A stretch of DNA of 64,000 nucleotides from Candidatus Sericytochromatia bacterium (GTDB lineage: Bacteria > Cyanobacteriota > Sericytochromatia > S15B-MN24 > JAQBPE01), in NCBI GenBank assembly GCA_035285325.1, contig JAYKJB010000117.1, forward strand, positions 832 to 64,831, written 5' to 3'. The position numbers were made by a program, and so were the translations under genes. The notes beneath the pieces are model-generated. The model was not told the DNA's origin, did not search any database, and saw only the letters and a program-made list of their open reading frames with translations. Shown piece after piece: positions 6,273-22,801 of the stretch. Position 1 is the first letter of the stretch. The number at the start of each line of letters is the position of its first letter.

Positions 6273-6274
6273 AG

Positions 6275-6997: not shown

Positions 6998-7051
6998 TCG
7001 ATGGCCTCCTCAGCGGGAACCGCAAGCGCCACATACCCCTGCCGCGGGTAC

Positions 7052-8545
7052 ATGTCGCCCATGGCCTCCCAGCAGCTGATGTCTTCCGACCCTCGCGCGC
7101 GGGCCTTCAATCGCGCCATGACCGCGGCCCCCGGCGACATGTCGCTGGTGGTACCAGCCGGCCAGATAGAAGGCCCCCTTCCGCCCGCCCTGCGAGGGGG
7201 GCGCCTGCTTTCGAACGGCCCGGGCTGGACCCGCATCGGCGATCGCCTGGCCCATCCCTTCGACGGCCACGGCTACGTGCGCGCCTTCGAATTCCTGCCG
7301 GATGGCGCGCTGCGCTTGCAGGCCCGTTTCGTCGAGACCCGGGTCTATCGCGACGAACGCAGCGCCGGCCGCCTGCGTCACCGCGGGCTCGCCACCAACC
7401 GCGGCCCACGCTTCTGGCACAACCTCGGTTTCGGCCCGCCCCGCAACGTGGCGAACACCACGATCGTGCCGTGGGGGGGCCAACTGCTGGCCGGCTGGGA
7501 GGGCGGGGTGCCCCACGCCTTGGAGCCGGAAACGCTGGCCACGCGGGGGGAGGAGACCTTCGGCGGCGCGCTGGCCGGCCAGGCCACCCTGGCACACATG
7601 CGCCACGACCATGCCTGCGATCGCCTGGTGACCTGCAGCCTGGCCATGGGACGTCAGACCGGTTTGACCTTTCGCGAGTTCGACCCGGCGGGACGGCTCG
7701 TGCAGAGTCACGCCGCCCAGCTTCCCGGCGCGCGCTTTGTCCATGACTTCGCCCTGACCCCGGGCTGGTTCGTGCTGGGAGACAACCCGCTGCGCGTGCG
7801 GCCTGCGGGCCTGGCGCGCATGCTGCTCGGCCGCGGCACCATGCTGCAGGCCGTCGCCCCGGACGATCGCCCGCCCGGCGCGCTGCATCTGGTCTCGCGC
7901 GACGGCCGTGGCCGCACGCGCCGCGTGCGCCTGCCGGCAGCGGCCCAGATCCTGCACTTCGCCAATGCCTTCGAACGAGACGGCTGGCTGTTCGTGGATG
8001 CCTGCGTGTTCCACCGCTTCACGCTCGGTGAGGAATTCGGTTACCGCGGGCCCGACCAGCCCTTTGACCTCGCCCTGCCCGAGGCGCGCGGGCCGCAACG
8101 CCTGTACCGCATCACGATCCCGCCGGAGGCCACGGAAGCCGGCTGGGAACTGCTGACGCCCCATGGGGTCGACTTCCCGCGCATCCACCCGGCCCATGAG
8201 GGACAAAACACCCGCTGGCTCTTTGGCGCGACCCGAAGAGACCCGCGCTTCAGTGACCCATTCGATTCCCTGATCGCGATCGACCTGCACGATCGCGATC
8301 GCGCAGCCCAGCTGTTCAGCGTGCCGGACGCCTGTACCTTCGTGGGCGAGCCGATCTTCGCGCCGGACCCGGCGGACCCGGGCCAGGGGCACGTGCTGGC
8401 CGTGCTCTCGGATGGCGCGCAGGGGCGCTCGCGGCTGGCCGTTTTCGACGCCACGGACCTCGCGCGGGGACCGCTCGCCCAGGTGCCGCTACCGCTCTTG
8501 CCGCTGGCCTTCCACGGGGCCTGGTTGCCTGGTGCGAAGGTTTGA
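7052..8545 (+). CDS. Carotenoid-cleavage-oxygenase (RPE65/CCO) family dioxygenase
   Basis: 497 aa from the ATG at 7052 (the track ORF over-extends to 5867). Four conserved His regions (HPFDGHGY, HDFALTPGWFVL, HFANAF, HGAWLP) typical of CCO/lignostilbene dioxygenases. Confidence 0.8.
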   Translation: MSPMASQQLMSSDPRARAFNRAMTAAPGDMSLVVPAGQIEGPLPPALRGGRLLSNGPGWTRIGDRLAHPFDGHGYVRAFEFLPDGALRLQARFVETRVYRDERSAGRLRHRGLATNRGPRFWHNLGFGPPRNVANTTIVPWGGQLLAGWEGGVPHALEPETLATRGEETFGGALAGQATLAHMRHDHACDRLVTCSLAMGRQTGLTFREFDPAGRLVQSHAAQLPGARFVHDFALTPGWFVLGDNPLRVRPAGLARMLLGRGTMLQAVAPDDRPPGALHLVSRDGRGRTRRVRLPAAAQILHFANAFERDGWLFVDACVFHRFTLGEEFGYRGPDQPFDLALPEARGPQRLYRITIPPEATEAGWELLTPHGVDFPRIHPAHEGQNTRWLFGATRRDPRFSDPFDSLIAIDLHDRDRAAQLFSVPDACTFVGEPIFAPDPADPGQGHVLAVLSDGAQGRSRLAVFDATDLARGPLAQVPLPLLPLAFHGAWLPGAKV

Positions 8546-8617
8546 CAAGACTTGGCCCCCCGGGGACGATGATGTCGGCGCGCCGCGGCCGCCGGGTCTG
8601 GAGAGGACGCATCCTGG

Positions 8618-9538
8618 ATGAACCTGTCGGTATTGCTGGCCTGGTTTGATGGCAGCACGGGCCGCGAGGCCGCGGGCGAACGCCTGGACTGGCTGCGCGC
8701 CGGCCCCTTTCTGGCCATCCACGCGCTGTGCGGCCTGGCCTGGTACACCGGCGTGAGCCCGACCGCCATCGCGGTGGCGGTGGGCCTTTACCTGGTGCGC
8801 ATGTTCGCCATCACGGCCTTTTACCATCGCTATTTCTCCCACCGCGCCTTCAAGACCTCGCGGGCCTTTCAGTTCCTGATGGCGCTGCTCGGCAACAGTG
8901 CGGTCCAGCGCGGGCCGATCTGGTGGGCCGCGCATCACCGGCATCACCACCGCCATTCAGACCGCCCCGAGGACCTGCACTCGCCCGTCCAGTACGGATT
9001 CTGGCAAAGCCACGTGCGCTGGTTCCTGACGGGCCGTGGCTTTGCGACCCAGAGCCAGTACGTGACGGACCTGCTGGCCTACCCGGAACTGCGCTGGCTC
9101 GACCGCTTCGACTGGGTCGGCCCGGTGGCCCTGCTGGCCGCGCTGGCGGCCAGCGGCGCCGCCCTGCAGACCTGGGCGCCCGACCTCGGCACCAGCGCCG
9201 CGCAGCTGGTGGTCTGGGGCTTCGCCATCTCGACGGTGGCGACGTGGCACGTCACCTACACGATCAACTCGCTCTCGCACCAGTGGGGCACGCGCCGCTA
9301 CCAGACCAACGATGACAGCCGCAACAACTGGCTGCTGGCGCTGCTGACGCTCGGCGAGGGCTGGCACAACAACCACCATCATCACCAGAGTTCGGCCCGC
9401 CAGGGTTTTTTCTGGTGGGAAATTGACCTGGCATACTATGGCCTGCGCCTGCTGGCAGCCTTGCGGCTGGTCTGGGATCTGCGGCCCGTTCCCGCCCACG
9501 TTCTGCTGAAGAACCGATCCGAGGTCCCTGCCGCATGA
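8618..9538 (+). CDS. Membrane fatty-acid desaturase (acyl-CoA/acyl-lipid delta-9 desaturase family)
   Basis: Three histidine boxes HRYFSH, HHRHHH and HNNHHH. RBS GGAGAGGA upstream. Confidence 0.85.
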   Translation: MNLSVLLAWFDGSTGREAAGERLDWLRAGPFLAIHALCGLAWYTGVSPTAIAVAVGLYLVRMFAITAFYHRYFSHRAFKTSRAFQFLMALLGNSAVQRGPIWWAAHHRHHHRHSDRPEDLHSPVQYGFWQSHVRWFLTGRGFATQSQYVTDLLAYPELRWLDRFDWVGPVALLAALAASGAALQTWAPDLGTSAAQLVVWGFAISTVATWHVTYTINSLSHQWGTRRYQTNDDSRNNWLLALLTLGEGWHNNHHHHQSSARQGFFWWEIDLAYYGLRLLAALRLVWDLRPVPAHVLLKNRSEVPAA

Positions 9539-10848
9539 GCCCGACCGGCGCCCCTACCACCCCGGAGACCCCCGCGCGGACAGGCCTCGGACAGGCGTTC
9601 TGCCGCTCCCTGGTGCTGAAAGGCTTCGCGGCCCTTCAGCGTGGCACCCTCACCCTGCACGAGGGAGGTCAGCGCCACACCTTCGGGGGCCGCGAACGGG
9701 CGGACCTGCAAGCCGAACTGACCATTCGGGATGGTGCGGCCTGGCGTCGCATCGCGCTGGGGGGCTCACTCGGCGCGGCTGAGGCCTATCTGCGCGGGGA
9801 ATGGGTCAGCCAGGACCTGCCCAGCCTGATTCGCCTGTTCGCGGCCAACCTGGCGGTTGCCGACGAGATGGAATCGACGCTCTCGCGCCTGCTGAACCTG
9901 CCCCAGGCCCTGGCGCACCGCCTGCGTCGCAACAGCCGGCAGGGGAGCCGCCGCAACATCCGCGACCACTACGACCTGGGCAACGACTTCTTCGCGCTGT
10001 TCCTCGACCCCAGCCTGACCTACTCCTGCGCCTGGTTCGACACGCCCGACACCCCGCTCGAGGCGGCCTCGATCGCCAAGCTTGACCGCGTCTGTCGCAA
10101 GCTGGCCCTGGGACCGAACGACCGCGTGGTCGAGATCGGCAGCGGTTGGGGCAGCTTCGCCCTGCACGCGGCCGGTCACTATGGCTGCCACGTCACGACC
10201 ACGACCATCTCGGACGCCCAGTATGAGGTGGCGTCCCGGCGCATCGCGGAGGCCGGCCTGACGGAGCGCATCACCCTGCTCAAGCAGGATTACCGCACCC
10301 TGACGGGCCAGTTCGACAAGCTCGTCTCGATCGAGATGATCGAGGCCGTGGGCGCGGACTTCATGGACGACTACTTCGCGACCCTGAGCCGCCTGCTGCG
10401 CCCGGATGGCCAGCTGCTGATCCAGGCCATCACCATGCCGGAGCAGCGTTTCGCGGCCTACCTGCGCTCGGTGGATTACATCCAGCACTATGTCTTCCCG
10501 GGCAGTGCCCTGACCTCGATCGGCGCCATGGCGCGCGCGGTCGGCCAGGCCACCGACCTGGGTTTCTTCCACGTGGAGGACATGTCCGCCCACTACGCGC
10601 GCACCCTGCAGTGCTGGCGCGACACCTTTCTGGCCCGCCGCGAGGCGGTGCTGGCGCTCGGCCCTTACGACGAACGCTTCATCCGCCTGTGGGACTACTA
10701 CCTGGCCTACTGCGAGGCCGGGTTCGCCGAACGCTGCACCGGCGTGGTACAGCTGGTGCTGACCAAGCCGGGCTGCCGCCGCGGCCCCATCGAGCTGCCG
10801 CTGCCAGCGGTAGCTTCTCAGGAGACGCCCAGCCTGGCCGTGGTCTAG
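9535..10848 (+). CDS. cfa: Cyclopropane-fatty-acyl-phospholipid synthase family methyltransferase
   Basis: SAM motif VVEIGSGWGSFALHAA, CFA-synthase C-terminal YDERFIRLWDYYLAYCEAGF. A 4-bp ATGA overlap with the desaturase stop implies translational coupling. Confidence 0.85.
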   Translation: MSPTGAPTTPETPARTGLGQAFCRSLVLKGFAALQRGTLTLHEGGQRHTFGGRERADLQAELTIRDGAAWRRIALGGSLGAAEAYLRGEWVSQDLPSLIRLFAANLAVADEMESTLSRLLNLPQALAHRLRRNSRQGSRRNIRDHYDLGNDFFALFLDPSLTYSCAWFDTPDTPLEAASIAKLDRVCRKLALGPNDRVVEIGSGWGSFALHAAGHYGCHVTTTTISDAQYEVASRRIAEAGLTERITLLKQDYRTLTGQFDKLVSIEMIEAVGADFMDDYFATLSRLLRPDGQLLIQAITMPEQRFAAYLRSVDYIQHYVFPGSALTSIGAMARAVGQATDLGFFHVEDMSAHYARTLQCWRDTFLARREAVLALGPYDERFIRLWDYYLAYCEAGFAERCTGVVQLVLTKPGCRRGPIELPLPAVASQETPSLAVV

Positions 10849-11796: not shown

Positions 11797-12384
11797 ATGC
11801 TGCGCGCCCACCGATTCTTCTCCCTGCCCACGGCCAGCCTGCTGCTCGCGATGCTGGTGGCCTGCAGCGGCATCCCGGCCGAAAGTGCCCCCACCCCGGC
11901 CGGCAGCGCCGCCTACTCGGGGGCGCGAGTCAGCCTGAGCCCGGCTGCCTGGCGGGCGCGGCTCTCGCCCGAGGCCTATCGGGTGCTACGCGAGAAGGGC
12001 ACCGAACGAGCCTTCAGCGGCGCCCTCTGGAACGAGCACGGCACGGGCACCTACCAGTGTGCCGGCTGTGACTTGCCGGTGTTCGCTTCCGAGAGCAAGT
12101 TCGAATCCGGTACGGGCTGGCCCAGCTTCTTTCAGCCGCACACCCCCGGCCACGTGCGCGAAGCCCCGGATGACAGCCTCTGGATGAAGCGCACGGAGGT
12201 CTTGTGCGCCCGCTGCGACGGCCACCTGGGACACGTCTTTTCGGATGGGCCTGCGCCCACTGGCCTGCGCTACTGCATCAACTCGGCGGCCTTGCGCTTC
12301 GTGCCAAAGGCGCAGACGGGAGCTCCCAAGCTGTTCAAGCGAGGCGGAACGCCGGCAACCGCCCCCAGGCCAGGGAGCAGATGA
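11797..12384 (+). CDS. msrB: Peptide-methionine (R)-S-oxide reductase MsrB with lipoprotein signal peptide
   Basis: GAGGAA RBS. Lipobox [11 protein letters not shown]. SelR domain with CxxC...CxxC zinc motif ([19 protein letters not shown]) and the GWPSF motif. Confidence 0.85.
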
Positions 12385-12399
12385 CGGCAGAACCTGATC

Positions 12400-13809
12400 T
12401 CAGGCCATTTCGATAGCGCGGCGCTGCATGTCGAGGAAGACGCGCAGTTGCTCGCGGGTGAGCCGCCCCTGAGAGACCAGCACCTGGCCCAGGGGCGTGC
12501 CACTCCGTTCGGCTTCGTCCAGCGCCTGAGCGAGCTGCGAAGGTTTGATCACGCCGTGTTCCACCAGGAACAGCCCCAGCGGGCGCGGGCCACTGCCTTC
12601 CACGCTCAGGCGCGATTGCAGGGCCACGGCAAAATTGAGCTTGGTCTCGTCGATATAGCCCAGTTCCAGCGCCAGCTGGCCGAAGGCGATGTGCTTGCCC
12701 AGCCGCCGACGCCGGATCTGCTCGACCACCACGTGCTGGAGTTGCTCGTGCGAGAGGATATCCTCGCGCTGAAGGATGGCGCCCAGTAGCGATCGCAACC
12801 CCGCGCCGCCCATGGCCGAGCCGATCGCCGGCAACAGGTTCGGATCGCCGGCCGACTCCCCGGGACGCAGGTGCGGTGCCGCAGCCGGACGTCCTTCCGC
12901 TTGCGTCTGGCTGGATCCCGCCTCGCCCCCCGGGACGGGATTGAGTTCGAAGGCCTGCAGCACCCGCGGGCTGGTCAGCCCCTCGGCCACGATCAGCTCC
13001 CGCAGGGGGCCCCCCTCCTTGGCGTGCCGGTCCAGCACCACCAGCATGGAGACGGGAGAGACCAGGTCCAGCTGGAGCAGGTGGTCGACGAACATGCGAT
13101 CCAACGGGTCGAGCCGCTGCATCTGGTGCTGAAACGCCAGCGTGAAGTTCAGCTGGTAGGGCTCGAGCAAGCCGAGCATGACACAGGTTTCGCCCAGCTT
13201 CAGGCGTTTGCCGGCCGCAAGGCTGCGCTGCTGAGCCCGCAAGGCGGCCTCGAGTTCATTGCGGCCGAGCAGCCCCTGGCGGGCCAGAATCAGGCCAAAC
13301 AGTGGCCCCTGGAGCGTCGCCGCCGGGTCGACCGAGGGGTCCGCCGCAGGCAACGGGGCGCAGAACAGTCCAATGCCCTCCTTCACCCCACTCAGCTGGC
13401 GCAATACCAGATCGCCCACCTCCACCGCCACCTCGGCCTCGGGCCACAGCCACCACATGCCATCGCGCAGCGGAATGGGTGCCTCCTCGGACTCATCGAC
13501 GCCCGGCCCGATCCAGGCGCTGGGAATCACCATGGCTCCCCCGTTCGAGAGTTCGAAGGCCCACAGACCGCTCTGCAGCCGCCGCACCTCCAGCGCCCGC
13601 ACGTCCGGAGCCCCGAGCTCGGGGCCCACCGCCGTGGCCCAGACCGCCAGCAGGGTTTCGCGCGCCGCCAGGAAACCCGCGCGCACGCGCGCCTCCTCCT
13701 CGGACGCAGGCTTGCTGTCCTGATTGAAGGAGCTGATGCGAAGCGCCCATTCCCGCCCCGAATGCCACACCGTCGCCTCGGCCGGCATGCGTCCGGGCCT
13801 GAGTACCAT
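12400..13809 (-). CDS. Hypothetical protein with tandem T2SS-GspE-N-terminal-like (MshEN-type) domains
   Basis: Three repeats of the pattern L(S/T)xEQL..AL..Q...G.(R/K)LGE.L...G.I....L..AL. Start taken at the internal ATG at 13809. Confidence 0.45.
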   Translation of the reverse strand: MVLRPGRMPAEATVWHSGREWALRISSFNQDSKPASEEEARVRAGFLAARETLLAVWATAVGPELGAPDVRALEVRRLQSGLWAFELSNGGAMVIPSAWIGPGVDESEEAPIPLRDGMWWLWPEAEVAVEVGDLVLRQLSGVKEGIGLFCAPLPAADPSVDPAATLQGPLFGLILARQGLLGRNELEAALRAQQRSLAAGKRLKLGETCVMLGLLEPYQLNFTLAFQHQMQRLDPLDRMFVDHLLQLDLVSPVSMLVVLDRHAKEGGPLRELIVAEGLTSPRVLQAFELNPVPGGEAGSSQTQAEGRPAAAPHLRPGESAGDPNLLPAIGSAMGGAGLRSLLGAILQREDILSHEQLQHVVVEQIRRRRLGKHIAFGQLALELGYIDETKLNFAVALQSRLSVEGSGPRPLGLFLVEHGVIKPSQLAQALDEAERSGTPLGQVLVSQGRLTREQLRVFLDMQRRAIEMA

Positions 13810-14247
13810 GAGCGAAGGCGTTGCGGTCACGAGGTGGCTCCTCTGGGGTCGGCCCGGCAGCCAGGCGCCCACTGGCGCCGCGCGGGATGACAGGGCCGAA
13901 AGCGGCTGCCTCCAGCATACCCGAAGGCGCGCCGCTTGATTCGCGGCGAGGAGCAGAGGGCCGAATTTGCCCCGCATTCCAAAGAAACCAGGGAGTGAGG
14001 GGAAGCGACTTGCAGTGAAATGGTTTCGAAGCGGGAATGGTGTTGAGGGGCCCCGAGCGAGGGGGGTGCCCTCGCCCCTTCATCCGCAGGAACGACGCCC
14101 TTTTCCGATGACCCCCGACCCGACCACCGCTCCTTGCTGTCACGACCAGCAGTACAACAACCGCGCCCGAGTGCCCCAGGCCGAGGCCCACCTGGCCGAC
14201 CCGGCCCAGCGCCTCCACCGCCTGACCCGCGACTGGTTGACCCAGCC

Positions 14248-15432
14248 CTAGGCCGCGGCCGGCTGCCCCGCCGCCGGGGCCGGGGCGACGCGGAAGGCCC
14301 GCAAGAAGAAGGCCGGCATGCGCCCGCTGGCCAACCAGATCAGCGAAGGAATCATCTCCAGGCCGATGCGCCAGGCCAGCGGCAGCTGCCCGTTGAAGAA
14401 CCAGTACTTGTCGGAGCAGGCAAAGCAGATCACCACCGTCACGGCCAGCACCAGCAGGGCGATCACGTTGTCCTCCCGGTGCCGCTCCCAGTCGTGGGGC
14501 AGCCCCCGGACCTCCGACTTGTAGAGGGCGTAGCCGTTCACCAGGTCGAGCACCGGATAGAACGAGAACAGCACCAGCAACTCCAGGTGATAGCCCCACA
14601 AGAAATGGCCGGGATCGATGGTGAGCAGGCGATGGAAGATGTAGGGCAGCGTGATGAAGCAGCAGGCCAGGCTGAACAGGTGCTGACCGAAAATCAGGCG
14701 CGTGGGCACCCCACGCAGCGCGTTGATGTGACACCCGACGCTGAGAAACGACACGCCGAAGGCGCCGATGAAGCCGAGCGACATGAGCGATTTATCGCCG
14801 TGGGAGCCACCGGCGTGCGCCGCGGTGATCAGGCTCGGAAAGCCGAAATCGCCGGCCAGCTGGGTGAAGAAGAGGATCAAGCCGGTGGCCGCCATCAGGT
14901 AGACGTTGGTGAGCAGCATACGCGACACCGCCAGCCGGATCGAGGCCGCGGCCCGGCTGGTCAGGAACATGGCACACAGCGAGATGCAGGAGATACCGCC
15001 GAACACGTGCATGAAGTCGACCAGCAGGCGGGAAAGCGCATGGTCCCCCGTGAGCGAATGGCGGGTGAAGATGGCGTGGATCGGCGCGGCCTGATAGGCC
15101 GGCAGCAGGTGCTCGCCATCGCCGATCGGGGCCGTGAACAGGGACTCACCCGGCTGGGTGCGGGGCGCGGGGGCGGGGGCGGGCGGCAGTTGCGCCACGC
15201 GCTGGCGCAGCAACTGGGAAAAGGCCGTGCCCTCGGGGCGACCGGCCGCCATGCGCCAGGCCTCGGCGCCAGCCTCGAAGGTGAGCCAGCCGGCCAGGAT
15301 CAGGATCAGGGCCAGCAGGCCCTTGGACAGGTTGGAAAGCGACGCCACGGCAGAACTCCAAGGGAAAGAACGGCACCTCGCGCCGTCCGGACGGTGAGGG
15401 ACGGGCTGTTGCCGCCACCCAGGTGGCGGCAA
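14248..15432 (-). CDS. Polytopic membrane protein of unknown function, last gene of the lipoxygenase cluster
   Basis: Multiple hydrophobic helices (LLALILILAGW, LCAMFLTS, LILFFTQLAG, VLFSFYPVLDLV, VLAVTVVICFACS). Immediately downstream of the lipoxygenase gene on the same strand. Start uncertain. Confidence 0.55.
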   Translation of the reverse strand: MPPPGWRQQPVPHRPDGARCRSFPWSSAVASLSNLSKGLLALILILAGWLTFEAGAEAWRMAAGRPEGTAFSQLLRQRVAQLPPAPAPAPRTQPGESLFTAPIGDGEHLLPAYQAAPIHAIFTRHSLTGDHALSRLLVDFMHVFGGISCISLCAMFLTSRAAASIRLAVSRMLLTNVYLMAATGLILFFTQLAGDFGFPSLITAAHAGGSHGDKSLMSLGFIGAFGVSFLSVGCHINALRGVPTRLIFGQHLFSLACCFITLPYIFHRLLTIDPGHFLWGYHLELLVLFSFYPVLDLVNGYALYKSEVRGLPHDWERHREDNVIALLVLAVTVVICFACSDKYWFFNGQLPLAWRIGLEMIPSLIWLASGRMPAFFLRAFRVAPAPAAGQPAAA

Positions 15433-15441
15433 CAGCTGGGA

Positions 15442-16968
15442 TCAGTAACTGATCGAGGCCTTCCAGCGGTGCGGCTGCAGGCGCAGGAAGGGAATCGCAC
15501 GGGCCTGGTTCTCGGCGGCCAGGGTCTCATCCAGCTGCCCCAGCGCGTGCTGCAGGCCCATCAAGGAGGCCCGCAGCCGCGCGTCGGCCACCTTGGCGTC
15601 GAGGTCCATGGTCATCAGGAAGTTGCCGCCGTTATCGAAGCGTCCGGCATAGGCGCCCTGGTCGAACAGGAACACGTCCACCGCACGCGGCGGGTCCTGG
15701 TTCTCCGTCAGCAGGTTGTTGATGTGGATCAGCTTCTTGTGAGCCGGCACGTTCGACATGGTGAACGGTGAGAAGTCGCCGCAGACCTCATGCGAGACGT
15801 TCAGGTACAGGATCACCGTCAGCACCTCGACCAGCCGGTCGAGCGAGGCCAGCGGCAGGGCCTTCTGGCTGGCATCGGGCAGCAAGGCCACCAGCTGGGT
15901 GTACCAGGCCTGCAGGGCCGCATCGGCCGCCACCGCCGCATCGTCCCGATACACGGGCCCCACGTGGTTGCGCACGAAGGCTTCGAAGGTGTCCCAGATG
16001 CGCGGGGCGATCGCCACGTAGGGGTGATGGGGAATCCCGTCGATGCCCCGCTCGGCGATGTCCTTGCGCGGAATCAGCTGGTTCAGGCGGTAGCTCGGCA
16101 CGAAATTCTCGAAGGCCCGGCCCACCTGCTCGCCGGTGATGAAGTTCGACTGGATGAAGTAGCTGGCCGGCGTGACCAGCAACTTGAAGGCGAAGTCGTT
16201 GACCACCAGCGTGCCGTAGGTGAAGAAGTCCAGAAAGGGCCGCAGCGCGTGCTGAGCGGGCAGGGCCAGGGTCGAGATGGCGTAGGCCTGACCGGTGATC
16301 AGGTGGGTGTGTGCCAGGTGCCGCAAAAAGACGGTGAAGCGGGCGTCCAGCGCGTTGAAGACGAACTTGGCGCGTTCCCAGTCGGCATCGCCCGGGCGGC
16401 TGAGCCGATCGCCCCGGCGGATCGAGGCGACCCGAAACTGCTCGCCCTCGACCACAAAGGTGCCCACCACCGGCTCCATGATGCCGGCGAAGTGGGGTCC
16501 GAAATCGACCTCGTAGCGACCTTCCTGCACCCGCTGCAGCAGGAAGGGATTGGGGCCTTGCAGGCGCATGGCCGCAAAGGCGGCGTCATCGTGAATGTCA
16601 TTCCAGCCCTCGTCATGGGCCGGAAAGGGCGGATAGGGCATGGCGTCAGGCGACCAGGGCACTTCGGCCGACATGGGCGCGAGGCGCAGGGCATTGAACA
16701 CCACGCCGTCGAGGATGTAATAGGGCGCGATGTACTCGATCGACAGATGATTGGGGGCTGGGATGTAGCTGGGCACCTTGAGCGCCTCAGGCAGGATGCT
16801 GGAGCGGTAGTGCGAGCGCGCCGAAACGATCGGCGGCAGGCCCGCCGGTCGCGCGACCGGGTGCCGGAAGGTCTTGCGTGCCCAGATCTGCAAGGCGTTG
16901 CGGTTGACCTTGCGGGTGTCCAGAACCGCCTGGATTTTCAGGCGATCAACGAGGCCGAACGTCTTCAA
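15442..16968 (-). CDS. Lipoxygenase (bacterial mini-LOX, no PLAT domain)
   Basis: MRLQGPNPFLL motif, iron-ligand helix HLAHTHLI (H-x4-H), and a third His region NVSHEV. Start placed at the TTG after the GGGAGGG RBS. About 508 aa. The C-terminus is ...SISY rather than a terminal Ile. Confidence 0.8.
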   Translation of the reverse strand: MKTFGLVDRLKIQAVLDTRKVNRNALQIWARKTFRHPVARPAGLPPIVSARSHYRSSILPEALKVPSYIPAPNHLSIEYIAPYYILDGVVFNALRLAPMSAEVPWSPDAMPYPPFPAHDEGWNDIHDDAAFAAMRLQGPNPFLLQRVQEGRYEVDFGPHFAGIMEPVVGTFVVEGEQFRVASIRRGDRLSRPGDADWERAKFVFNALDARFTVFLRHLAHTHLITGQAYAISTLALPAQHALRPFLDFFTYGTLVVNDFAFKLLVTPASYFIQSNFITGEQVGRAFENFVPSYRLNQLIPRKDIAERGIDGIPHHPYVAIAPRIWDTFEAFVRNHVGPVYRDDAAVAADAALQAWYTQLVALLPDASQKALPLASLDRLVEVLTVILYLNVSHEVCGDFSPFTMSNVPAHKKLIHINNLLTENQDPPRAVDVFLFDQGAYAGRFDNGGNFLMTMDLDAKVADARLRASLMGLQHALGQLDETLAAENQARAIPFLRLQPHRWKASISY

Positions 16969-18256
16969 GGTGTGCCCTCCCAACAGGCAATTCGGGCTTC
17001 GTGGCGATGACGGGAGTGCCCCGCAGCGCCCGGGCCCACTGACCGAACTGATACAGGCGCACCCGCGCCCAGGCCACGGAGCGATAATCCTGTGCGCTCG
17101 TGGCGTGAAAGATCCCCAGGCCCGGCGGCTGGTGCGCCAGGGTGAAGGTGGTGCGGTCCGTTTCCTCGGGCGTCATGGCCGCCTCGAGCCGGATGTGGGC
17201 CAGGTCGCGCCAGGGGTGGCGGGCCTCGTCCCAGGGCCGGTTGAGGTGCAGCAGTTCCTGCGTATCGCCGTCGGCGGGCTCGCGCACCTGAATTTGCAGC
17301 ATGTAGTCGACCGGGCCCTGACGCAGGCGCGTCTGCCACTCCTGGCGCAGGTAGTCGGTGGGCCGATCGTCCTCCGGGTTGCGCTGCATGTTCCAGACCT
17401 GGGCCTGGCGGGCCGCATCGGGCAGGCCGCTTTCCTGGCCCAGGTCCGGCCGGCGCAGGCGGTAGCGGCAGTAGCGCAGGCGCCCGTCACGCCCCTCGTA
17501 GGGAAAGACCACCTGGGAGGTGTAAACCAGGTCGGCGTAGGAATCCGGCGCCTCACGCACCGATTCGATCCAGCTGATGTAATAGGCGGGCAACTCGTCC
17601 ATCAGCCGGCCCTGCGCGGCGAAGTCGCCCACTTCGGGCCGGCTGGCCAGGCGCGACTTGGAGAAGCGCACGAAGCTGTCCACGCTCCAGAGCGGGCCCT
17701 GGGTGCCGCTGTTGAAGATCATATCGAACGGGCTTTCCATGTCGCGGTCGCTGAACTTGAGGGCACACCCGCGCAGGGTGCAGGCCGCGTCGTCGTTGAA
17801 GGAACCGTTGGCATGGCGCAAGCGGCAAGCAAAGCGCCGTCCGGGCTGGAAGAAGGGGTGCTCGGGGATGTCCAGCTGCGACACGATGGTGGCCGTGCCA
17901 CGCGCGCCCACCCCCACCGGATGGGTGCCGCGGGTGCCGGTCTTGAGCCCGTGCAGCGCGAAGGCGGCAGCCAGGCCGTAGGTCTCGACGCGCAGGTTGA
18001 GCGCCCCCGCCAGGTTGCCGTCGGCCACCGGACCGTAGCAGCGAGCGGCCGCTGCGGCCCAGTTGGCCTCGCCGTTGCGCGCCTTCCAGAGTTCCACGCC
18101 CAGGTTACGCCAGGCGCCCTGGGTCGCGGCCAGCGGACTGGGCTCGACCGGCAACGGGCCGGCGTGGGGCGGCAGATCGATGCGATAGACCTTCAATGCG
18201 AGCCTCCCACGAACGGAGCAAGGTGGAACCAGGCCTTGGGCAAGAGCGTCAACCAC
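16946..18256 (-). CDS. Catalase-related heme protein (allene-oxide-synthase/hydroperoxide-lyase-like)
   Basis: Catalase distal-His core TH-PVGVGARGTATIV aligns with catalase VVHAKGAGAFGYFEV. R-L-R-Y-C-R-Y-R-L resembles the proximal-Tyr segment RLFSY.DT.R.RLG. About 430 aa, shorter than true catalases. Overlaps the LOX gene start by about 23 bp. Confidence 0.6.
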   Translation of the reverse strand: MVDALAQGLVPPCSVRGRLALKVYRIDLPPHAGPLPVEPSPLAATQGAWRNLGVELWKARNGEANWAAAAARCYGPVADGNLAGALNLRVETYGLAAAFALHGLKTGTRGTHPVGVGARGTATIVSQLDIPEHPFFQPGRRFACRLRHANGSFNDDAACTLRGCALKFSDRDMESPFDMIFNSGTQGPLWSVDSFVRFSKSRLASRPEVGDFAAQGRLMDELPAYYISWIESVREAPDSYADLVYTSQVVFPYEGRDGRLRYCRYRLRRPDLGQESGLPDAARQAQVWNMQRNPEDDRPTDYLRQEWQTRLRQGPVDYMLQIQVREPADGDTQELLHLNRPWDEARHPWRDLAHIRLEAAMTPEETDRTTFTLAHQPPGLGIFHATSAQDYRSVAWARVRLYQFGQWARALRGTPVIATKPELPVGRAHLEDVRPR

Positions 18257-19785
18257 CAGCCGAGCCCGACGGCCAGGCTGGCCAGCTGCGGCTGGGTCTC
18301 CTCCTCCGTCGCCATGAACAGGCCGGCGGCGATCAGGCCCATGCCGATGATCAGGTCACGCACGTGGATGTTCACGGCGGTGACCGGGTCATGGCCGGGC
18401 AGGAACGGGGGAATGCTGCCCTGGGCGGCCAACGCCTCGAGCGGCGCCGGCAAGCCGCTGCTGCTGGCGATCATCCACAACGCGGACACCAGGATCACCC
18501 CGGTGCCGTGCCAGGCCAGCCGCTTCCAGCCCGTGCGCGGCAGGTACTTCAGCAACACCACGGCCGCGTAGGTGGTCGAGATGGCCGTCATGAACAGCGT
18601 GGCCAGCCAGAAAGTAAGGTCCACCACGGGCGAGCCGCCCCACAGCGGTCCCAGGCCTCGCGCCGGCCAGGAGGGATGCAGCGGCGACCCCACCCCCAGG
18701 TTGGCCAGCAGCTTGGTCTCCAGGGTGAACCACACGGCGCTGAAGGGCAGCAGCCAGGCCACGATGGTGGCGTGCAAGCGGGCCTTGGGCCAGACGTCTC
18801 GCAGCAACAAGGCCACCAGCACCGCGAACCCTCCGATGATCAGGTCCTGGCGATGGATGTTGACGGCCAGCTCGCGGGCGTGCGGCGCGAAACTCGGCGA
18901 CACGCTGTACCAGGCGGCCGACAGCGCCATCACACCGACCGCCCCGGTGACCACCCAGCGCGTCAGCGACCAGGCCAGCCGCTGCACCTGGCGCTCCCAC
19001 AAGAGGTTGTAAGCGTGCAGGTACAGGCCCAGGCCCGCAAAGGCCGCATAACCGGCCATCAGCATCGGGTGGAAGCCCTGGTGGGCCAGCAGCGCGAAGA
19101 CGGCGATCGCCGTTGCTCGCACCGCCAGCGCAAGGGGCGCGGCCACCGGGGCATCCGAGCGAGCCGCCCAGAGCAGGGCCACGGCGTAGCAACCCGCTAT
19201 GGAGGTGGCAAAGCTGGTCACGTAGCCACTCGCCGCATCCAGCAACAGCGGCACGGAGGCCACCAGCACCAGCAGTATGGCCAGCTTGCCCTCCAGCATC
19301 ATCAGGCGCCGGGCCAGCGACTGGCTCCAGGTGTCGAAGTGGTTGCGCAGGCGCGGCCAGAGGGCCCGCGCGTCGGCGGACAAGGCCAGCATGGCGAGGG
19401 GCAGGCCGACGTCCACCGAGGCGATGAACAGGAACGCCCCGTTCTCCAGGTGGCCGAAGGCCCAGTTGGCCACCAGCCAGGGCCCCACCCAGACCAGCCG
19501 CCAGACCAAACTCAGGTCCATCAGGCTCTTTTGGCGCGACCACAAGGCGAACAAGTGGACCAGGCCCATCGGCGTGACCGCCACGAGCAAGCTGCGCAGG
19601 TGCAGCAAGCGATCGCCCTCGTAGGCCGGCACCTGCCCCGCCAGCGCAAACAGGGACGGCTGGAGGATGAACAGCGGCAGCGACAGGTAGATGAGGGCCC
19701 CAACCAGCATCAGCCACTCGTATATTCCCCAGGCGCGAGCATCGGGGGCAGCAGCGGGGGCGAGCGCGGGAGCGGGCGTGGTCAT
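18193..19785 (-). CDS. Polytopic membrane protein with an internal tandem duplication, first gene of the LOX cluster
   Basis: At least 12 hydrophobic segments. Two homologous halves (…ELAVNIHRQDLIIGGFAVLVALL… and …VTAVNIHVRDLIIGMGLIAAGLF…). Overlaps the catalase-related gene start. Confidence 0.55.
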   Translation of the reverse strand: MTTPAPALAPAAAPDARAWGIYEWLMLVGALIYLSLPLFILQPSLFALAGQVPAYEGDRLLHLRSLLVAVTPMGLVHLFALWSRQKSLMDLSLVWRLVWVGPWLVANWAFGHLENGAFLFIASVDVGLPLAMLALSADARALWPRLRNHFDTWSQSLARRLMMLEGKLAILLVLVASVPLLLDAASGYVTSFATSIAGCYAVALLWAARSDAPVAAPLALAVRATAIAVFALLAHQGFHPMLMAGYAAFAGLGLYLHAYNLLWERQVQRLAWSLTRWVVTGAVGVMALSAAWYSVSPSFAPHARELAVNIHRQDLIIGGFAVLVALLLRDVWPKARLHATIVAWLLPFSAVWFTLETKLLANLGVGSPLHPSWPARGLGPLWGGSPVVDLTFWLATLFMTAISTTYAAVVLLKYLPRTGWKRLAWHGTGVILVSALWMIASSSGLPAPLEALAAQGSIPPFLPGHDPVTAVNIHVRDLIIGMGLIAAGLFMATEEETQPQLASLAVGLGWWLTLLPKAWFHLAPFVGGSH

Positions 19786-20003
19786 GGCGAGCGATGCTTC
19801 CTCGGAAAAAGACGGGAAAACGGTGGCGTGTCATTGTGACTGATCCCCACCAAGCGAGGGAACCCTGTTAACAAAATGTTACAACACCACCGATCAGGCG
19901 CCTCCTGCGGCCCCGGGGCGTGGCAGCGCCTGCTCGGCTCCGGTGTGCCGACGAGCCTGCCTGTGCCGGGCCGTGGATGGCCGGGCCCCCTTGACCACCG
20001 CCG

Positions 20004-21272
20004 TCAGGTAGCCCGGAGCAAGCCCGGAAGCTGGAGGCCGGCGGGCGCCAGGCCAGGAAACAGACGGGCCAGCGTGGCCGTCTCCAGACCCGTGGGGCCG
20101 CCCAGCAGCGTGGCCACCACGCGGCGCCAGTCGGTCGTGACCGCCAGATCGCGCCCATCGAGACGCGCCGCAGGCGCCAGGCCCGGCCAGCGCCCGAGCA
20201 CCTGACCACCGGCCACCGGCCCACCGAGCAGCCAGAGCACGTTGCCGGCCCCGTGGTCGGTGCCGCCGTTGCCGTTCTCCGCCACTGTCCGGCCGAACTC
20301 CGACATGACCAGCACGGTGGTGCGCGTCAGCTCATCGCCCAGCCCAGCGGCCAGGGCGGCCAGACCGGACGCCAGCGGCCGCAGGCGGTTGGCCAGCTGC
20401 CCCTGGGCCCCGCCCTGGTTGATGTGGGTGTCCCAGCCCCCCACCGGCAGGAAGGCGCCGCGTATCTCGGGGTGGCGGCGCAGCAGGCGGGCCAGCACCT
20501 CGGCGTCCTGCACCAGCCCGACCGCCGAGGGCGCACCGGCATCCGCCTGGTTGGCCTCCGCCTCCAAGGCCGTCAGATCGGCCAGCAACCGCTCGCGCTG
20601 GGCACGCCCCTGGCGATAGGCCAGCGCCAGCGGATCATCCCCGCTGTAGAGGCGGTCGAAGGCCGTCTGCACCGCCGGGCGATCGAGCGCCATCGGGGCC
20701 TGGCGGCCCCGGCCCGGCGTCACCACCTGCACCCCTGGACTGCCACGCAGGATCGCGGGAATGCCGGTATCGAGGGCGATCGCCCCGGCCGGCGCGCCCG
20801 CCTCGAACAGCGCCAGCCAGCGCGCCAACCAGCCGCCCGCCGCCGCACCGCGCCCGAGCGTGCCGGCCTCCATGGCGGCCTGCGCCTCGAAATGCGAGCG
20901 GGCCCCGGCGGGATCGCCACAGGCATGCACGAAGGCCAGCCGGCGCCCCTCCCAGAAAGGCAACAGCGGCGCCAGCGCAGGATGCAGCCCGAATTCCGCC
21001 GTCAGCGGCAGCACCCCATCGGTCTCGCCGGGGGCACCGAGGGCGATCTGAGGCCGCGCCTCGGCGTAGTGCGGATCGCGATACGGCACAACCACACTGA
21101 GGCCATCCACCGCGCCGCGCAGGAAGACCACCACCAGCCGTTGCGAGGCAGGCTGAGAGCCGGCCCAGGCCCAGCCGGCCCGGCCCACCGGCCACAAGCA
21201 GGCCCCAGCCGCCAGGCCCAGGCCCTGCAGGAATTGCCGTCGGTCGATCCGGAGGTCTGGCACGCGATTCAA
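20004..21272 (-). CDS. DUF1501 family protein (sulfatase-like fold) with Tat signal
   Basis: Twin-arginine motif RRQFLQGLGLAAGA. DUF1501 hallmark C-terminal GGTDHG. Confidence 0.85.
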   Translation of the reverse strand: MNRVPDLRIDRRQFLQGLGLAAGACLWPVGRAGWAWAGSQPASQRLVVVFLRGAVDGLSVVVPYRDPHYAEARPQIALGAPGETDGVLPLTAEFGLHPALAPLLPFWEGRRLAFVHACGDPAGARSHFEAQAAMEAGTLGRGAAAGGWLARWLALFEAGAPAGAIALDTGIPAILRGSPGVQVVTPGRGRQAPMALDRPAVQTAFDRLYSGDDPLALAYRQGRAQRERLLADLTALEAEANQADAGAPSAVGLVQDAEVLARLLRRHPEIRGAFLPVGGWDTHINQGGAQGQLANRLRPLASGLAALAAGLGDELTRTTVLVMSEFGRTVAENGNGGTDHGAGNVLWLLGGPVAGGQVLGRWPGLAPAARLDGRDLAVTTDWRRVVATLLGGPTGLETATLARLFPGLAPAGLQLPGLLRAT

Positions 21273-22801
21273 TGCTCCTGAAATTCGGGAGCGCCCAGCA
21301 TGAGGGCCAGGCGCAGCGCGGGGGGCGCCGCGGCGATCGCCAGGCGGCTGCGCTCGCCGAAGGGCGACCCCAGGGTCTCGGCCAGTTCGTCCGGACGAAC
21401 GGTCGCCTGGCGGGCCGCCTGGGCCGCGAAACTCACCCGCCGGGCCATGGCCTCCGGGTTCAGCCAGGCCGTGCGTGCCACCGGCCAGCCATCCGGGGTG
21501 GCGCAGCCGTGGAGCGGTTGCCCCAGCCGGGCCATGGCCTGCAGGGCAGGATCGACCGAGTCGGGAAACTGCCCGCTGGCGCGCAAGGTCGAGATCACCA
21601 GGCGATAGGGCGTCTTGAAGCGCGCCTGACGAGCCTGTGGCGCCCAGAAGTCCGGATGGCTCAGCAGGCAGCGCAAGGTCGCATCCAGGCGGCCGTCGCT
21701 GGCCTGAAAGGCGGCCGCCGTCGCGTCGATCAGGGCGGCGGGCGGATCGTCCGCCACGAAACGGCAGGCCAGCTTGCGCGCCAGAAAGCGGGCCGTGGCC
21801 GGGTGCCGGGCCAGCAAGTCGAGGGCCTGCTCGCCCTCGGCCTGGCCGCCTTCAGGAATGGTCACGCCCAGCAGGCGCTTGGAGCCTGGGAGGTGGCGGC
21901 GGGCATCGAAATAAAAACCCTCGTCAAGCGCGCCACGGCTAGCGGATTGCGCCCCGCGCGGTTCCGGCCAGCCGCGCGGAAAGCCCCAGCCCGTCAGGAT
22001 CGCGGTCAGAGCCACCACGTCGCCCTGGTCGTAGCCGCCGTGGACGCCCAGCGTGTGCAGTTCCAGCAGCTCCCGCGCGTAGTTTTCGTTGACCCCGCTG
22101 AAGCGTCGGTTTTGCGGGTTGGGACGCGAATTGCGCCAGTTGTCGAGGTAATCGAGCATGGCCGGATGCCGGGCCACGGCCCCGAGCAGGTCGCGAAAGC
22201 GCCCGAAGGCCTGCGGGCGCAGCACCCGCTCTTCCATGTCGCCCAGCATCGCGCCGACCGCGCGCTTGCGGGCATGCACGTTGAAGTGGTCGGCCCAGAA
22301 CTCCACCATCACTTCCTGCAACTGGCGCGGGCTGGCCAGCGCGCGCCAGACCCGGGCCGCCTGGGCCTCGCGCAGCAGTTGCCGCTCGACCCGCCGGGCG
22401 GCGGCCAGGGCCGAACGGTCCTGCGCTTTCTGCCGCTTGGCCGCCTGCAGGGGCGCCCGGTACTGGCGGGCGCGCGCCAATGGCGAGAGCGTCAGCGTGC
22501 CGAGAGCGGCCAGGCGTTCGCGCAGGCGCGCCGGCTCCTCCAGACCTTCCGGCGCCAGCTGCTGGGCGATCCAGGCGGTGGCGCCCTGCGCCTGCAAGCG
22601 CGCCAGGTCTCCAGGAGCAGGCCCGTAGGCAGCTCGCTCGAGCAGGTGACGGGCCTCGGCGGCCGTCAGCAATTCAGGCGGGGCCGCGGCGGCGGGATTG
22701 GCCCAGCCAGTCGCAAGCAGCCCGGCCGCCAGGCCCAGCGCCCTCGCCGCAACGCACGTGCCGGCACTGGCAGCGCCCTCAGCCAAGGGCCTCGTCCGCA
22801 T
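21269..22801 (-). CDS. DUF1800 family protein
   Basis: Characteristic EFWADHFNV and LELHTLGV motifs. 4-bp overlap with the downstream DUF1501 gene, the classic pairing. Confidence 0.85.
   Translation of the reverse strand: MRTRPLAEGAASAGTCVAARALGLAAGLLATGWANPAAAAPPELLTAAEARHLLERAAYGPAPGDLARLQAQGATAWIAQQLAPEGLEEPARLRERLAALGTLTLSPLARARQYRAPLQAAKRQKAQDRSALAAARRVERQLLREAQAARVWRALASPRQLQEVMVEFWADHFNVHARKRAVGAMLGDMEERVLRPQAFGRFRDLLGAVARHPAMLDYLDNWRNSRPNPQNRRFSGVNENYARELLELHTLGVHGGYDQGDVVALTAILTGWGFPRGWPEPRGAQSASRGALDEGFYFDARRHLPGSKRLLGVTIPEGGQAEGEQALDLLARHPATARFLARKLACRFVADDPPAALIDATAAAFQASDGRLDATLRCLLSHPDFWAPQARQARFKTPYRLVISTLRASGQFPDSVDPALQAMARLGQPLHGCATPDGWPVARTAWLNPEAMARRVSFAAQAARQATVRPDELAETLGSPFGERSRLAIAAAPPALRLALMLGAPEFQEH

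Follow-up and report, generated by a model that had tools for sequence, protein, structure and literature searches.

A lipoxygenase, a catalase-related hemoprotein and two orphan membrane proteins: a putative mobile oxylipin cassette in Candidatus Sericytochromatia and other bacteria

The physiological roles of bacterial lipoxygenases (LOX) are, to our knowledge, largely unknown, and work on catalase-related enzymes of the allene oxide synthase (AOS) type has so far dealt with isolated fusions or gene pairs from corals and a few cyanobacteria. Within bacteria, lipoxygenases are found in less than 0.5% of species (PMC6612559). The window analysed here, a stretch of 64,000 nucleotides from a Candidatus Sericytochromatia MAG, contains four close-packed minus-strand ORFs, encoding a membrane protein (M1), a hemoprotein resembling coral AOS (cAOS), a LOX and a second membrane protein (M2), and the question is whether they form one system and what such a system could do. 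All four ORFs had been proposed in an earlier sequence-only reading and were found where it had placed them, with three starts (those of the cAOS-like, LOX and M2 genes) refined. No earlier description of the cassette was found in the literature.

The hemoprotein gene (16946..18196, minus strand) encodes 416 aa from the NCBI start, the longest ORF extending to 18256, and the TTG start and the stop of M1 share nucleotides in the sequence TTGA, an overlap by which the gene is predicted to be translationally coupled to M1. The proposal that its product is catalase-related is confirmed by a full-length PDB match to the Plexaura cAOS (1u5u; E=3.1e-76, query residues 48-412 against 2-363, ~38% identity); MAP_2744c (3e4w, E=1e-4) is a weaker relative, and the ORF gives no Pfam hit, the Catalase family included. 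Residues T91, H92 and N162, corresponding to Thr66, His67 and Asn137 in Plexaura numbering, are invariant in 19 sequences, and R378 and Y382 (Arg349 and the proximal Tyr353) are present in 18 of them, the exception being a truncated sequence. In regard to specificity, the chemistry turns to that of a lyase when Phe and Tyr-Ser take the places of Leu150 and Asn176-Leu177 (Teder et al. 2017, PMC5617202). Unlike coral AOS, the window hemoprotein has Phe in the position of Leu150 and Ser-Trp in that of Asn176-Leu177, and thus lacks the AOS-specificity determinants. The same Phe occurs in 17/17 bacterial members, with Leu and Asn-Leu found only in two octocoral sequences. Because of this lyase-type Phe the product is uncertain and "allene oxide synthase" can serve as a family label only, so that the earlier assignment to the AOS type holds for family membership and does not extend to the product.

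The LOX gene (15442..16968, minus strand) starts with TTG, with a GGGAGGG ribosome-binding site 6 nt upstream, and overlaps the end of the cAOS-like gene by 23 nt. It encodes an atypical mini-LOX of 508 aa without a PLAT domain, whose proposed identity is confirmed by the PF00305 profile (37.2 bits against a gathering cutoff of 23.6, E=1.7e-9, residues 201-417) and by matches to 34 LOX sequences in the PDB (best E=7e-17). The first two iron ligands, H222 and H227 ("RHLAHTHL"), do not vary within the subfamily or in two canonical LOXs, and this region aligns with the PA-LOX ligand motif "HLAQTH". In helix 18, "SHE(V/I)xGDF" replaces the HxxxN motif ("HAAVNF"), with the His one position off register and Asp403 opposite the canonical Asn, which implies a one-residue insertion. 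The C-terminus reads "…ASISY" in the window, L001 and L010, ending in Tyr where canonical neighbours end in Ile. The variant motifs are kept in L001 and L010, and the helix-18 motif also in L011, where the contig breaks off after it. The LOX metal ligand is the C-terminal main-chain carboxylate, usually that of Ile and rarely of Val, and since the main chain provides the ligand, a terminal Tyr may retain function; LOX activity is not assured, given the non-canonical helix-18 motif and this Tyr. Signal peptides are absent from both the LOX and the cAOS-like protein.

The two flanking proteins, also taken to be membrane proteins in the sequence-only reading, are indeed polytopic, M1 (18193..19785, minus strand, 530 aa) having ~15 transmembrane helices in its AF2 model and M2 (14248..15348, minus strand, 366 aa from the NCBI start) ~8 predicted ones. 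Both are previously undescribed, tiny orphan families, with no Pfam family at E<=0.1 (MAPEG included) apart from a spurious CrgA hit and no PDB sequence relatives, and a Foldseek search with the M1 structure returned no match. The M1 model is confident and non-transporter-like. It contains a duplicated two-helix hairpin with invariant polar residues, in which H311/D314/W344/K358 matches H474/D477/W510/K517, and the family shares the invariant block "WLLPFSxxWFTxETK…GxGSP(L/F)HPSW". Only H474 is invariant among the M1 histidines, with H370 and H311 nearly so, and the strict conservation of H311 is lost in the wider family. In the predicted topology, the conserved site lies close to the outer face, with the best-conserved residues on the periplasmic side. 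For M2 the AF2 model is unusable (pLDDT 45), and the alignment shows H97, H114, H207 and H290 to be invariant, together with an "HRxDN" motif at a helix start.

Two candidate identities of these proteins were rejected. A resemblance of M1 to subunit I of a heme-copper oxidase or NO reductase is not borne out in sequence, as deep profiles show no relationship, and the six canonical His ligands of heme-copper oxidase subunit I are absent. A MAPEG/FLAP identity of M1 or M2 lacks a Pfam match, and ~15 and ~8 helices stand against the four-TM MAPEG fold.

Whether the four genes belong together can be judged from other genomes. The M1 family is tiny, with 78 representatives among 1.84 billion; it was found in 6 of 185,579 species genomes and has no homologue among 72,556 plasmids. 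The cassette genes are co-conserved, in shuffled order, in Sericytochromatia, Gemmatimonadota, Neomarinimicrobiota and other MAGs. Next to M1 lies a catalase-related partner in 8 of the 9 M1 lineages, a count that takes in the "RATH" homologue of L016 at roughly 20% identity. One or two lipoxygenases are encoded in six of the nine, M2 in six and a patatin phospholipase in five, and in L001 a Patatin::M1 fusion lies directly upstream of cAOS–LOX. M2 homologues show 31-36% identity in L007, L010, L012, L015, L016 and L025, and ~85% in the sister MAG L013. In several loci, cNMP-binding domains and a nucleotide cyclase come in addition, L015 and L025 combining a class III cyclase with a cNMP-binding patatin and a cNMP-binding LOX, and EF-hand domains occur in some loci. 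The earlier suggestion that the membrane proteins are dedicated partners is thus upheld by M1/M2 homologues accompanying cAOS/LOX genes in other phyla and by the fusion of M1 with a phospholipase. Since the same families recur, reordered, in at least eight other distantly related lineages, the gene arrangement is far beyond chance. M2 is dispensable, being replaced in the sister MAG L014 and absent near the Patatin::M1 locus; it is accessory, and some lineages have no M2.

The sequence-only reading had also assigned roughly 13 kb of the neighbourhood to lipid oxidation, modification and repair. The RPE65-type oxygenase, desaturase, CFA synthase and MsrB genes of this region are real, but the idea that they form one system with the cassette is not supported, as none of them recurs in any related locus. 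The sister MAG L013 has only the four-gene block in common with the window, and the block therefore moves as a unit. Related to this, the patchy distribution suggests horizontal transfer, and a rare, horizontally mobile cassette is part of the explanation we consider probable.

According to that explanation, the genes form a self-contained, horizontally mobile oxylipin cassette with M1 as obligate partner and M2 as accessory, which is probably correct, with considerable room for doubt. The cytoplasmic mini-LOX, its activity being predicted from homology, would convert a polyunsaturated fatty acid into a hydroperoxide, and the cAOS-family hemoprotein, again by homology, would rearrange it through an epoxy-allylic intermediate into an allene oxide or perhaps, in view of the lyase-type Phe, aldehydes. 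Gene coupling, fusion and co-occurrence suggest that the hemoprotein has its obligate membrane partner in M1, which may anchor the soluble enzymes at the cytoplasmic membrane face, in other lineages together with the patatin phospholipase that would release the fatty acid. Through its conserved His/Asp/Trp/Lys site, located in the half of the membrane that forms the outer leaflet, M1 may pass on the lipid substrate or a short-lived product, and would so couple oxylipin synthesis to its conversion or export. M2, with its four invariant histidines, could be an accessory subunit, possibly cofactor-binding, and no cofactor site has been verified. In Gemmatimonadota and Neomarinimicrobiota, cyclic-nucleotide control may be exerted via an adjacent cyclase and via patatin and LOX proteins fused to cNMP-binding domains. 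The cassette of the window has no cyclase and no cNMP domains, and neither a patatin gene nor an evident PUFA source is present in the window. The roles given to M1 and M2 are inferred entirely from gene context, without biochemical evidence.

As a point against this explanation, a simple docking model leaves unexplained that the soluble enzymes have no signal peptides while the best-conserved M1 residues are predicted to be periplasmic. The lack of a recognisable LOX in L016 and L012 also speaks against it, as does the absence of a catalase-related neighbour of M1 in L023/L024. In its favour, M1 in L023/L024 stands beside an RND efflux pump and an OYE-family reductase, a context in keeping with a lipid electrophile that is exported or processed.

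It is also conceivable, though unlikely, that the cassette serves the repair or detoxification of peroxidised membrane lipid and has protection from oxidative damage, rather than synthesis of a signal, as its main function; M1/M2 would recognise or extract peroxidised acyl chains, patatin, if present, would cleave them, and the hemoprotein would destroy the hydroperoxide. The reaction of cAOS and related proteins with hydroperoxides is established, which suits such a role, as do L012 and L016, where M1, M2, patatin and a catalase-related protein occur with no recognisable LOX, and the methionine-sulfoxide reductases nearby (MsrB in the window, PMSR in L001). However, the Msr genes are not conserved together with the cassette, six of the nine lineages have a LOX, which makes hydroperoxides rather than removing them, and cAOS-type enzymes yield reactive epoxides or aldehydes, which is not detoxification, while the cNMP, EF-hand and cyclase components point to signalling. 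It is rather improbable that M1, with or without M2, is itself a membrane enzyme, possibly binding heme or a metal, that converts the unstable hemoprotein product, for instance in the manner of an allene-oxide cyclase, isomerase or hydrolase, and is no anchor or conduit. Such an enzyme would be hard to reconcile with the lack of any sequence-level link between M1 and a heme protein, the variability of H311 in the wider family, the occurrence of M1 without a catalase-related neighbour, and a conserved site predicted on the membrane face opposite the soluble enzymes.

A cyclic-nucleotide abortive-infection system, similar to Pycsar or CBASS, in which a phospholipase, lipid-oxidising effectors and proteins that disrupt the membrane would be switched on by a cyclase signal, is brought to mind by the cyclase, patatin and LOX combination in L015 and L025, by the patchy distribution, and by PADLOC models (PycC, PycTIR, phospholipase effectors) that match generic domains. 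Such an anti-phage function is very improbable, as the PADLOC hits (L015, L016) are limited to ubiquitous cNMP-binding, cyclase and patatin domains, with no match for M1, cAOS or LOX and only a chance-level one for M2 (E2, E=0.0038). Moreover, the cyclase is of the HAMP/TPR sensor type, the window cassette has no cyclase, cNMP domains or patatin, and no neighbouring defence genes were seen.

Returning to the oxylipin cassette, one of its closest known counterparts is the octocoral AOS-LOX fusion protein (Plexaura homomalla cAOS-8R-LOX, 1u5u and 3dy5, and its Capnella cHPL-LOX paralogue), whose hemoprotein is homologous over its full length and likewise functionally paired with a lipoxygenase. 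The bacterial LOX and hemoprotein are, however, encoded by separate overlapping genes and do not form a single polypeptide, the mini-LOX is distant from the coral 8R-LOX (E about 1e-8), and M1, M2 and, elsewhere, the patatin and cNMP modules belong to the bacterial cassette and are undescribed for corals. In cyanobacteria, a catalase-related hemoprotein is paired with a mini-LOX lacking the N-terminal beta-barrel (PMC11719350). Examples are the catalase–mini-LOX fusion "linolenate 9R-lipoxygenase" of Nostoc sp. PCC 7120 and the catalase-related AOS of Acaryochloris marina, which occurs with a LOX; the Nostoc catalase-related domain, only 28% identical (E=1e-24), is far more distant than coral cAOS, and its gene is isolated between transposases, without M1 or M2.

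The mammalian 5-LOX pathway comprises cPLA2, 5-LOX, the membrane protein FLAP and LTC4 synthase/LTA4 hydrolase, under Ca2+ control. Its resemblance to the bacterial cassette is one of functional analogy only, without homology: both include a phospholipase, a lipoxygenase, an epoxide-forming step, integral membrane partners and second-messenger control, but the epoxide is formed by LOX itself in mammals and by a heme catalase-related enzyme in the cassette, and the messenger is Ca2+ in mammals, with cNMP-binding and EF-hand domains in some bacterial loci. Since in other phyla the gene set includes phospholipases under cyclic-nucleotide control, the cassette resembles a prokaryotic version of the oxylipin pathway of animals and corals.

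A more far-reaching proposal, which is possible but tentative, is that M1/M2 are new cofactor-bearing membrane families completing a prokaryotic eicosanoid-like cascade, running from cNMP/Ca2+ through patatin, LOX and the Thr-His hemoprotein to membrane conversion or export by M1/M2, and that the cassette represents the evolutionary pool from which octocoral AOS-LOX arose. In a quick tree, the coral domains fall inside the radiation of bacterial hemoproteins, with their placement unresolved, and it can be stated as a concrete hypothesis that the coral AOS-LOX pathway is of bacterial ancestry or was exchanged with bacteria. M1 homologues are present in protist transcriptomes (choanoflagellate, diatom) and are therefore candidate missing components of eukaryotic oxylipin pathways; if the cascade proposal is true, they would indicate membrane steps missing in eukaryotes, such as the handling of allene oxide or lyase products. 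Close relatives of the coral enzyme in several bacterial phyla are, in any case, part of a larger conserved gene set that includes two uncharacterised membrane families, phospholipases and second-messenger sensors. The set would provide a genetically compact system in which to study the handling of an unstable oxylipin intermediate at the membrane, and it adds two new protein families whose conserved residues are clear and testable.

As for expression, it is inferred that the operon may have its promoter and 5′ UTR in the 218-bp intergenic region upstream of M1 (19786..20003, minus strand). No other gap of any size lies ahead of the close-packed M1–cAOS–LOX genes, and the region includes a locally AT-richer stretch, with no consensus sigma-70 hit and no Rfam match. 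Between LOX and M2, the spacer (15349..15441, minus strand) folds into two strong hairpins (-44.3 kcal/mol, z=-3.5; 0/200 shuffles as stable). The second is followed by a U-rich tract and could serve as an attenuator or terminator, and the spacer gives a terminator-like hit at 15388-15368. In the sister MAG L014, M2 is replaced, and the replacement occurs at this same spacer.

All four open reading frames (ORFs) that the sequence-only reading had placed on the minus strand are present in this high-GC window (~69%), with three of their starts refined; three deposited proteins of a Candidatus Sericytochromatia MAG (VKP62_14405, VKP62_14415 and VKP62_14420) match window ORFs at 100% identity. The cassette leads from the gene of the membrane protein M1 (18193..19785), through that of a hemoprotein resembling coral allene oxide synthase (cAOS; 16946..18196), whose TTG start and the M1 stop share the sequence TTGA, and that of a lipoxygenase (LOX; 15442..16968), which has a TTG start with GGGAGGG upstream and a 23-nt overlap with the end of the hemoprotein gene, to that of a second membrane protein, M2 (14248..15348, refined start). 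The deposited hemoprotein begins 20 residues later than the 436-aa ORF. The only real gap within the cassette is the 93-nt spacer between LOX and M2 (15349-15441), which holds two strong hairpins (-44.3 kcal/mol, z=-3.5), one with a perfect 14-bp stem immediately 3′ of the LOX stop and the other with a 9-bp stem and a U-rich tract downstream of it. These hairpins could form an attenuator between the M1–cAOS–LOX core and M2. Promoter and terminator consensus scans of the window remained at background level, and no Rfam element was found in it.

The hemoprotein ORF has no Pfam match, and its proposed relation to catalases was borne out by a full-length alignment to the cAOS domain of Plexaura homomalla (PDB 1u5u; E=3e-76, ~38% identity). 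Across 19 family members, the distal Thr-His pair and Asn show no variation, while the proximal Arg…Tyr is retained in every complete family sequence, so that, as far as sequence can tell, the assignment to the cAOS family is secure. In regard to the reaction catalyzed, Leu150 with Asn176-Leu177 favours allene oxide synthesis, and Phe150 with Tyr176-Ser177 gives lyase chemistry (Teder et al. 2017, PMC5617202). Since all bacterial members (17/17) have Phe at the equivalent of position 150 and S/G plus W/S at the second site, the product of the hemoprotein is not predictable. A quick neighbour-joining tree placed the coral cAOS domains inside the bacterial radiation, with a bootstrap value of only 7%, and therefore no claim on the direction of transfer can be made.

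Distant or differently accompanied relatives of this gene were also observed. On plasmid pNGR234a of Sinorhizobium fredii NGR234 (410107-416160), a catalase-related gene with ~31% identity, apparently split over two CDSs, adjoins a di-heme cytochrome c peroxidase and a patatin-like phospholipase, which is a further link between catalase-related proteins and patatins. In two related loci without a recognisable LOX, L005 (3267-4754) and L012 (5798-7258), flavoproteins of the amine-oxidase or NAD_binding_8 type lie beside the catalase-related gene and could be an alternative fatty-acid-modifying partner; no mutual similarity of these two flavoproteins was detectable by blastp.

The lipoxygenase identity of the third gene was likewise confirmed, by a Pfam score of 37.2 bits against a threshold of 23.6 and by matches to solved LOX structures (up to E=7e-17). 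The protein is a mini-LOX of 508 aa, consisting of the catalytic domain only, and by its motifs it is assigned to a distinct subfamily, found at 15442-16968 in the window and at 9249-10757, 9217-10743 and 6489-7742 in the related loci L001, L010 and L011. Members of this subfamily keep the first two iron histidines without exception, while the 'HxxxN' of helix 18 in canonical LOX is changed to 'SHE(V/I)xGDF' (in its longer form 'SHE(V/I)xGDFSP'), and the C-terminus reads '…ASISY', ending with Tyr versus Ile in canonical LOX. Both variant features are kept in the complete homologues of L001 and L010 (50-59% identical), and such conservation suggests an altered metal site under selection.

The sequence-only reading had also regarded the two membrane proteins as dedicated to the LOX/catalase-related pair, and this is supported by comparison among genomes. 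Mapping of the four cassette proteins by blastp and tblastn onto the loci recovered with their homologues resolved nine M1 lineages. The first comprises the window and two sister Sericytochromatia MAGs, L013 and L014, with the order M1–cAOS–LOX(–M2), and the second, L011, has M1–cAOS–LOX. In the third (L007-9), M1–cAOS is convergent with a C2-domain LOX and M2, while the fourth (L010) is arranged as M2 / M1–cAOS–LOX / patatin. The fifth, from a 'Pseudomonadota' MAG (L001/L017), has a Patatin::M1 fusion followed by cAOS and LOX, and the sixth, from Gemmatimonadales (L012/L018), has M1–cAOS–cNMP/NTE-patatin–flavoprotein–Lnb_N–M2. The seventh, from Gemmatimonas (L015/L025), reads HAMP-cyclase / cNMP-binding::LOX – cNMP/NTE-patatin – LOX – cAOS – M1 / M2. 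The eighth, from Neomarinimicrobiota (L016), presents cNMP/NTE-patatin … M2 … a divergent catalase-related protein / M1, where the divergent protein retains 'RATH' and R…Y (hhalign E=3e-5). In the ninth (L023, 43-8665; L024, 2283-11189), M1 neighbours a membrane protein that combines EF-hand with two cNMP-binding domains, an RND efflux pump encoded by three genes, and a reductase of the Old-Yellow-Enzyme (OYE) family, which includes the OPR of the jasmonate pathway; neither a catalase-related gene nor a LOX is present in the available flank of these two loci. In total, a catalase-related partner adjoins M1 in 8 of the 9 lineages, LOX and M2 are each found in six, and patatin in five. As gene order and orientation vary among the lineages, this co-occurrence speaks for functional linkage and against inherited synteny.

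In L001 (5126-7990), a 954-aa protein joins an N-terminal patatin phospholipase to a full-length M1 (residues 449-952, 50% identity to the M1 of the window), and its gene is immediately followed by cAOS and LOX. In L015 (467-6959) and L025 (1365-6031), a cNMP-binding::LOX fusion of ~807 aa stands beside a phospholipase composed of two cNMP-binding domains, an NTE-type P-loop and patatin, and L015 additionally has an adjoining, divergent gene of HAMP–class III cyclase–TPR type; taken together, these genes of the Gemmatimonas-type loci form a complete set for lipid oxidation under second-messenger control. The cassette of the window has no cNMP, EF-hand or cyclase modules, and no patatin was found in the window. 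In L016, two proteins without a Pfam match (5259-6743 and 7875-8684, both on the minus strand) are encoded between the catalase-related gene, M2 and patatin. One of them, of 494 aa, has a TM segment at its N-terminus and two copies of an 'HLHPT' motif; the two proteins might replace LOX there.

Regarding the limits of the cassette, the window resembles L013 at the nucleotide level only within the four-gene block, and no other neighbour from the window was found to recur at related loci; on these grounds, the block is a mobile unit. L013 and L014 are collinear (86% nucleotide identity) and differ exactly at the position of M2, which is present in L013 (14344-15587) and replaced by ~730 bp of unrelated sequence in L014 (8032-8760), so M2 is dispensable. 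The wider neighbourhood of ~13 kb, earlier read as devoted to lipid oxidation and repair, does contain the proposed genes according to Pfam, namely a tight plus-strand row in which genes for a fatty-acid desaturase and a cyclopropane-fatty-acid synthase accompany one of the RPE65/carotenoid-oxygenase type (7052-10848), and, after it, an MsrB whose N-terminal part includes a hydrophobic segment (11797-12384, plus strand). That they belong to the same system could not be upheld, as none recurs at related loci. For the same reason we rejected as cassette parts a minus-strand gene directly downstream of M2 (12400-13977), whose 525-aa product carries MshEN-type c-di-GMP-binding domains, three in number (NCBIfam NF053729, E=2.8e-28), and the DUF1501 (TAT-signal) and DUF1800 pair immediately upstream (20004-22801, minus strand). 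The former was not found at any related locus, although the contigs of the sister MAGs hold little downstream of M2, and the latter is not kept beside the cassette in a sister MAG.

M1 (530 aa) and M2 (366 aa) apparently represent two novel protein families, with no relatives in Pfam, NCBIfam, PADLOC or PDB sequence searches. An exhaustive HMMER profile search among 1.84 billion representatives gave 78 members of the M1 family, with no Pfam domain in those checked, while six M1 loci were found among 185,579 species genomes and no plasmid homologue in PLSDB. The AF2 model of M1 is confident (pLDDT 87.7, pTM 0.85), with ~15 TM helices and no significant Foldseek match in the PDB. The positive-inside rule predicts an N-in topology, which fits the cytoplasmic patatin domain fused at the N-terminus in L001. 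M1 is internally duplicated (~297-364 matching ~459-527; hhalign 95%, E=3e-8), pairing H311/D314/W344/K358 with H474/D477/W510/K517. In a 31-sequence alignment reaching down to 21% identity, H474, D477, W510, K517, R96 and the 'G-x-P…HPSW' loop are invariant or nearly so, and the predicted position of these conserved residues is close to the outer face of the membrane. A relation to heme-copper oxidases was discarded, as the single-sequence hhalign match to helix III/loop/helix IV of CyoB was lost with deeper profiles. M2 has ~8 predicted helices, four invariant histidines and, at a helix start, an 'HRxDN' motif reminiscent of 'HRQDL' in M1; apart from this short common 'HRxD(L/N)' motif, no homology between M1 and M2 is detectable. 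Structure prediction for M2 from three sequences was unusable (pLDDT 45), and a metagenome scan with M2 added just one new, short contig. Among the M1 homologues (P0048, P0063, P0058, P0074), some also occur in transcriptomes of the choanoflagellate Diaphanoeca grandis and the diatom Trieres chinensis, where contamination is not excluded, and long forms of 907 and 1238 aa carry tandem copies of the M1 repeat unit.

In regard to the mechanism, homology shows LOX and the Thr-His hemoprotein to be a putative pair in which one enzyme produces and the other transforms a hydroperoxide, while roles of M1 and M2 are inferred from gene coupling, fusion and co-occurrence. M1 would be the obligate membrane partner of the hemoprotein, probably tethering the soluble enzymes, plus the phospholipase where present, to the membrane. 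Its conserved outer-leaflet His/Asp/Trp/Lys site suggests that it may bind, convert or translocate lipid and is not a passive anchor, and the RND pump and OYE reductase of the ninth lineage would be in keeping with a reactive lipid being exported or processed. M2 may be an accessory subunit, possibly cofactor-binding. Alternatively, M1 and M2 could both be true enzymes acting on an unstable product.

A role of the cassette in signalling is suggested by the cNMP, EF-hand or cyclase modules that would control it in four or five lineages. It is also possible that the cassette serves the repair of lipid peroxides, as the lineages without LOX would favour, but the frequent presence of LOX speaks against it. 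The cyclic-nucleotide modules could likewise be expected of a defence system, yet no PADLOC model matches the core proteins.

No description of the cassette was found in the literature, including targeted full-text searches, and a 2026 review of bacterial LOX and a phylogenomic preprint make no mention of a catalase-related partner, of membrane partners or of an operon context. Nearest among known systems are the AOS-LOX and HPL-LOX fusions of octocorals and the catalase-related/LOX proteins of cyanobacteria, and the cassette is classified as a new version of a known kind of pathway. The hemoprotein of the window is much nearer to coral cAOS than to the catalase–LOX fusion of Nostoc PCC 7120 (28% identity, E=1e-24), whose gene, unlike the cassette, stands isolated between transposases and without membrane partners.
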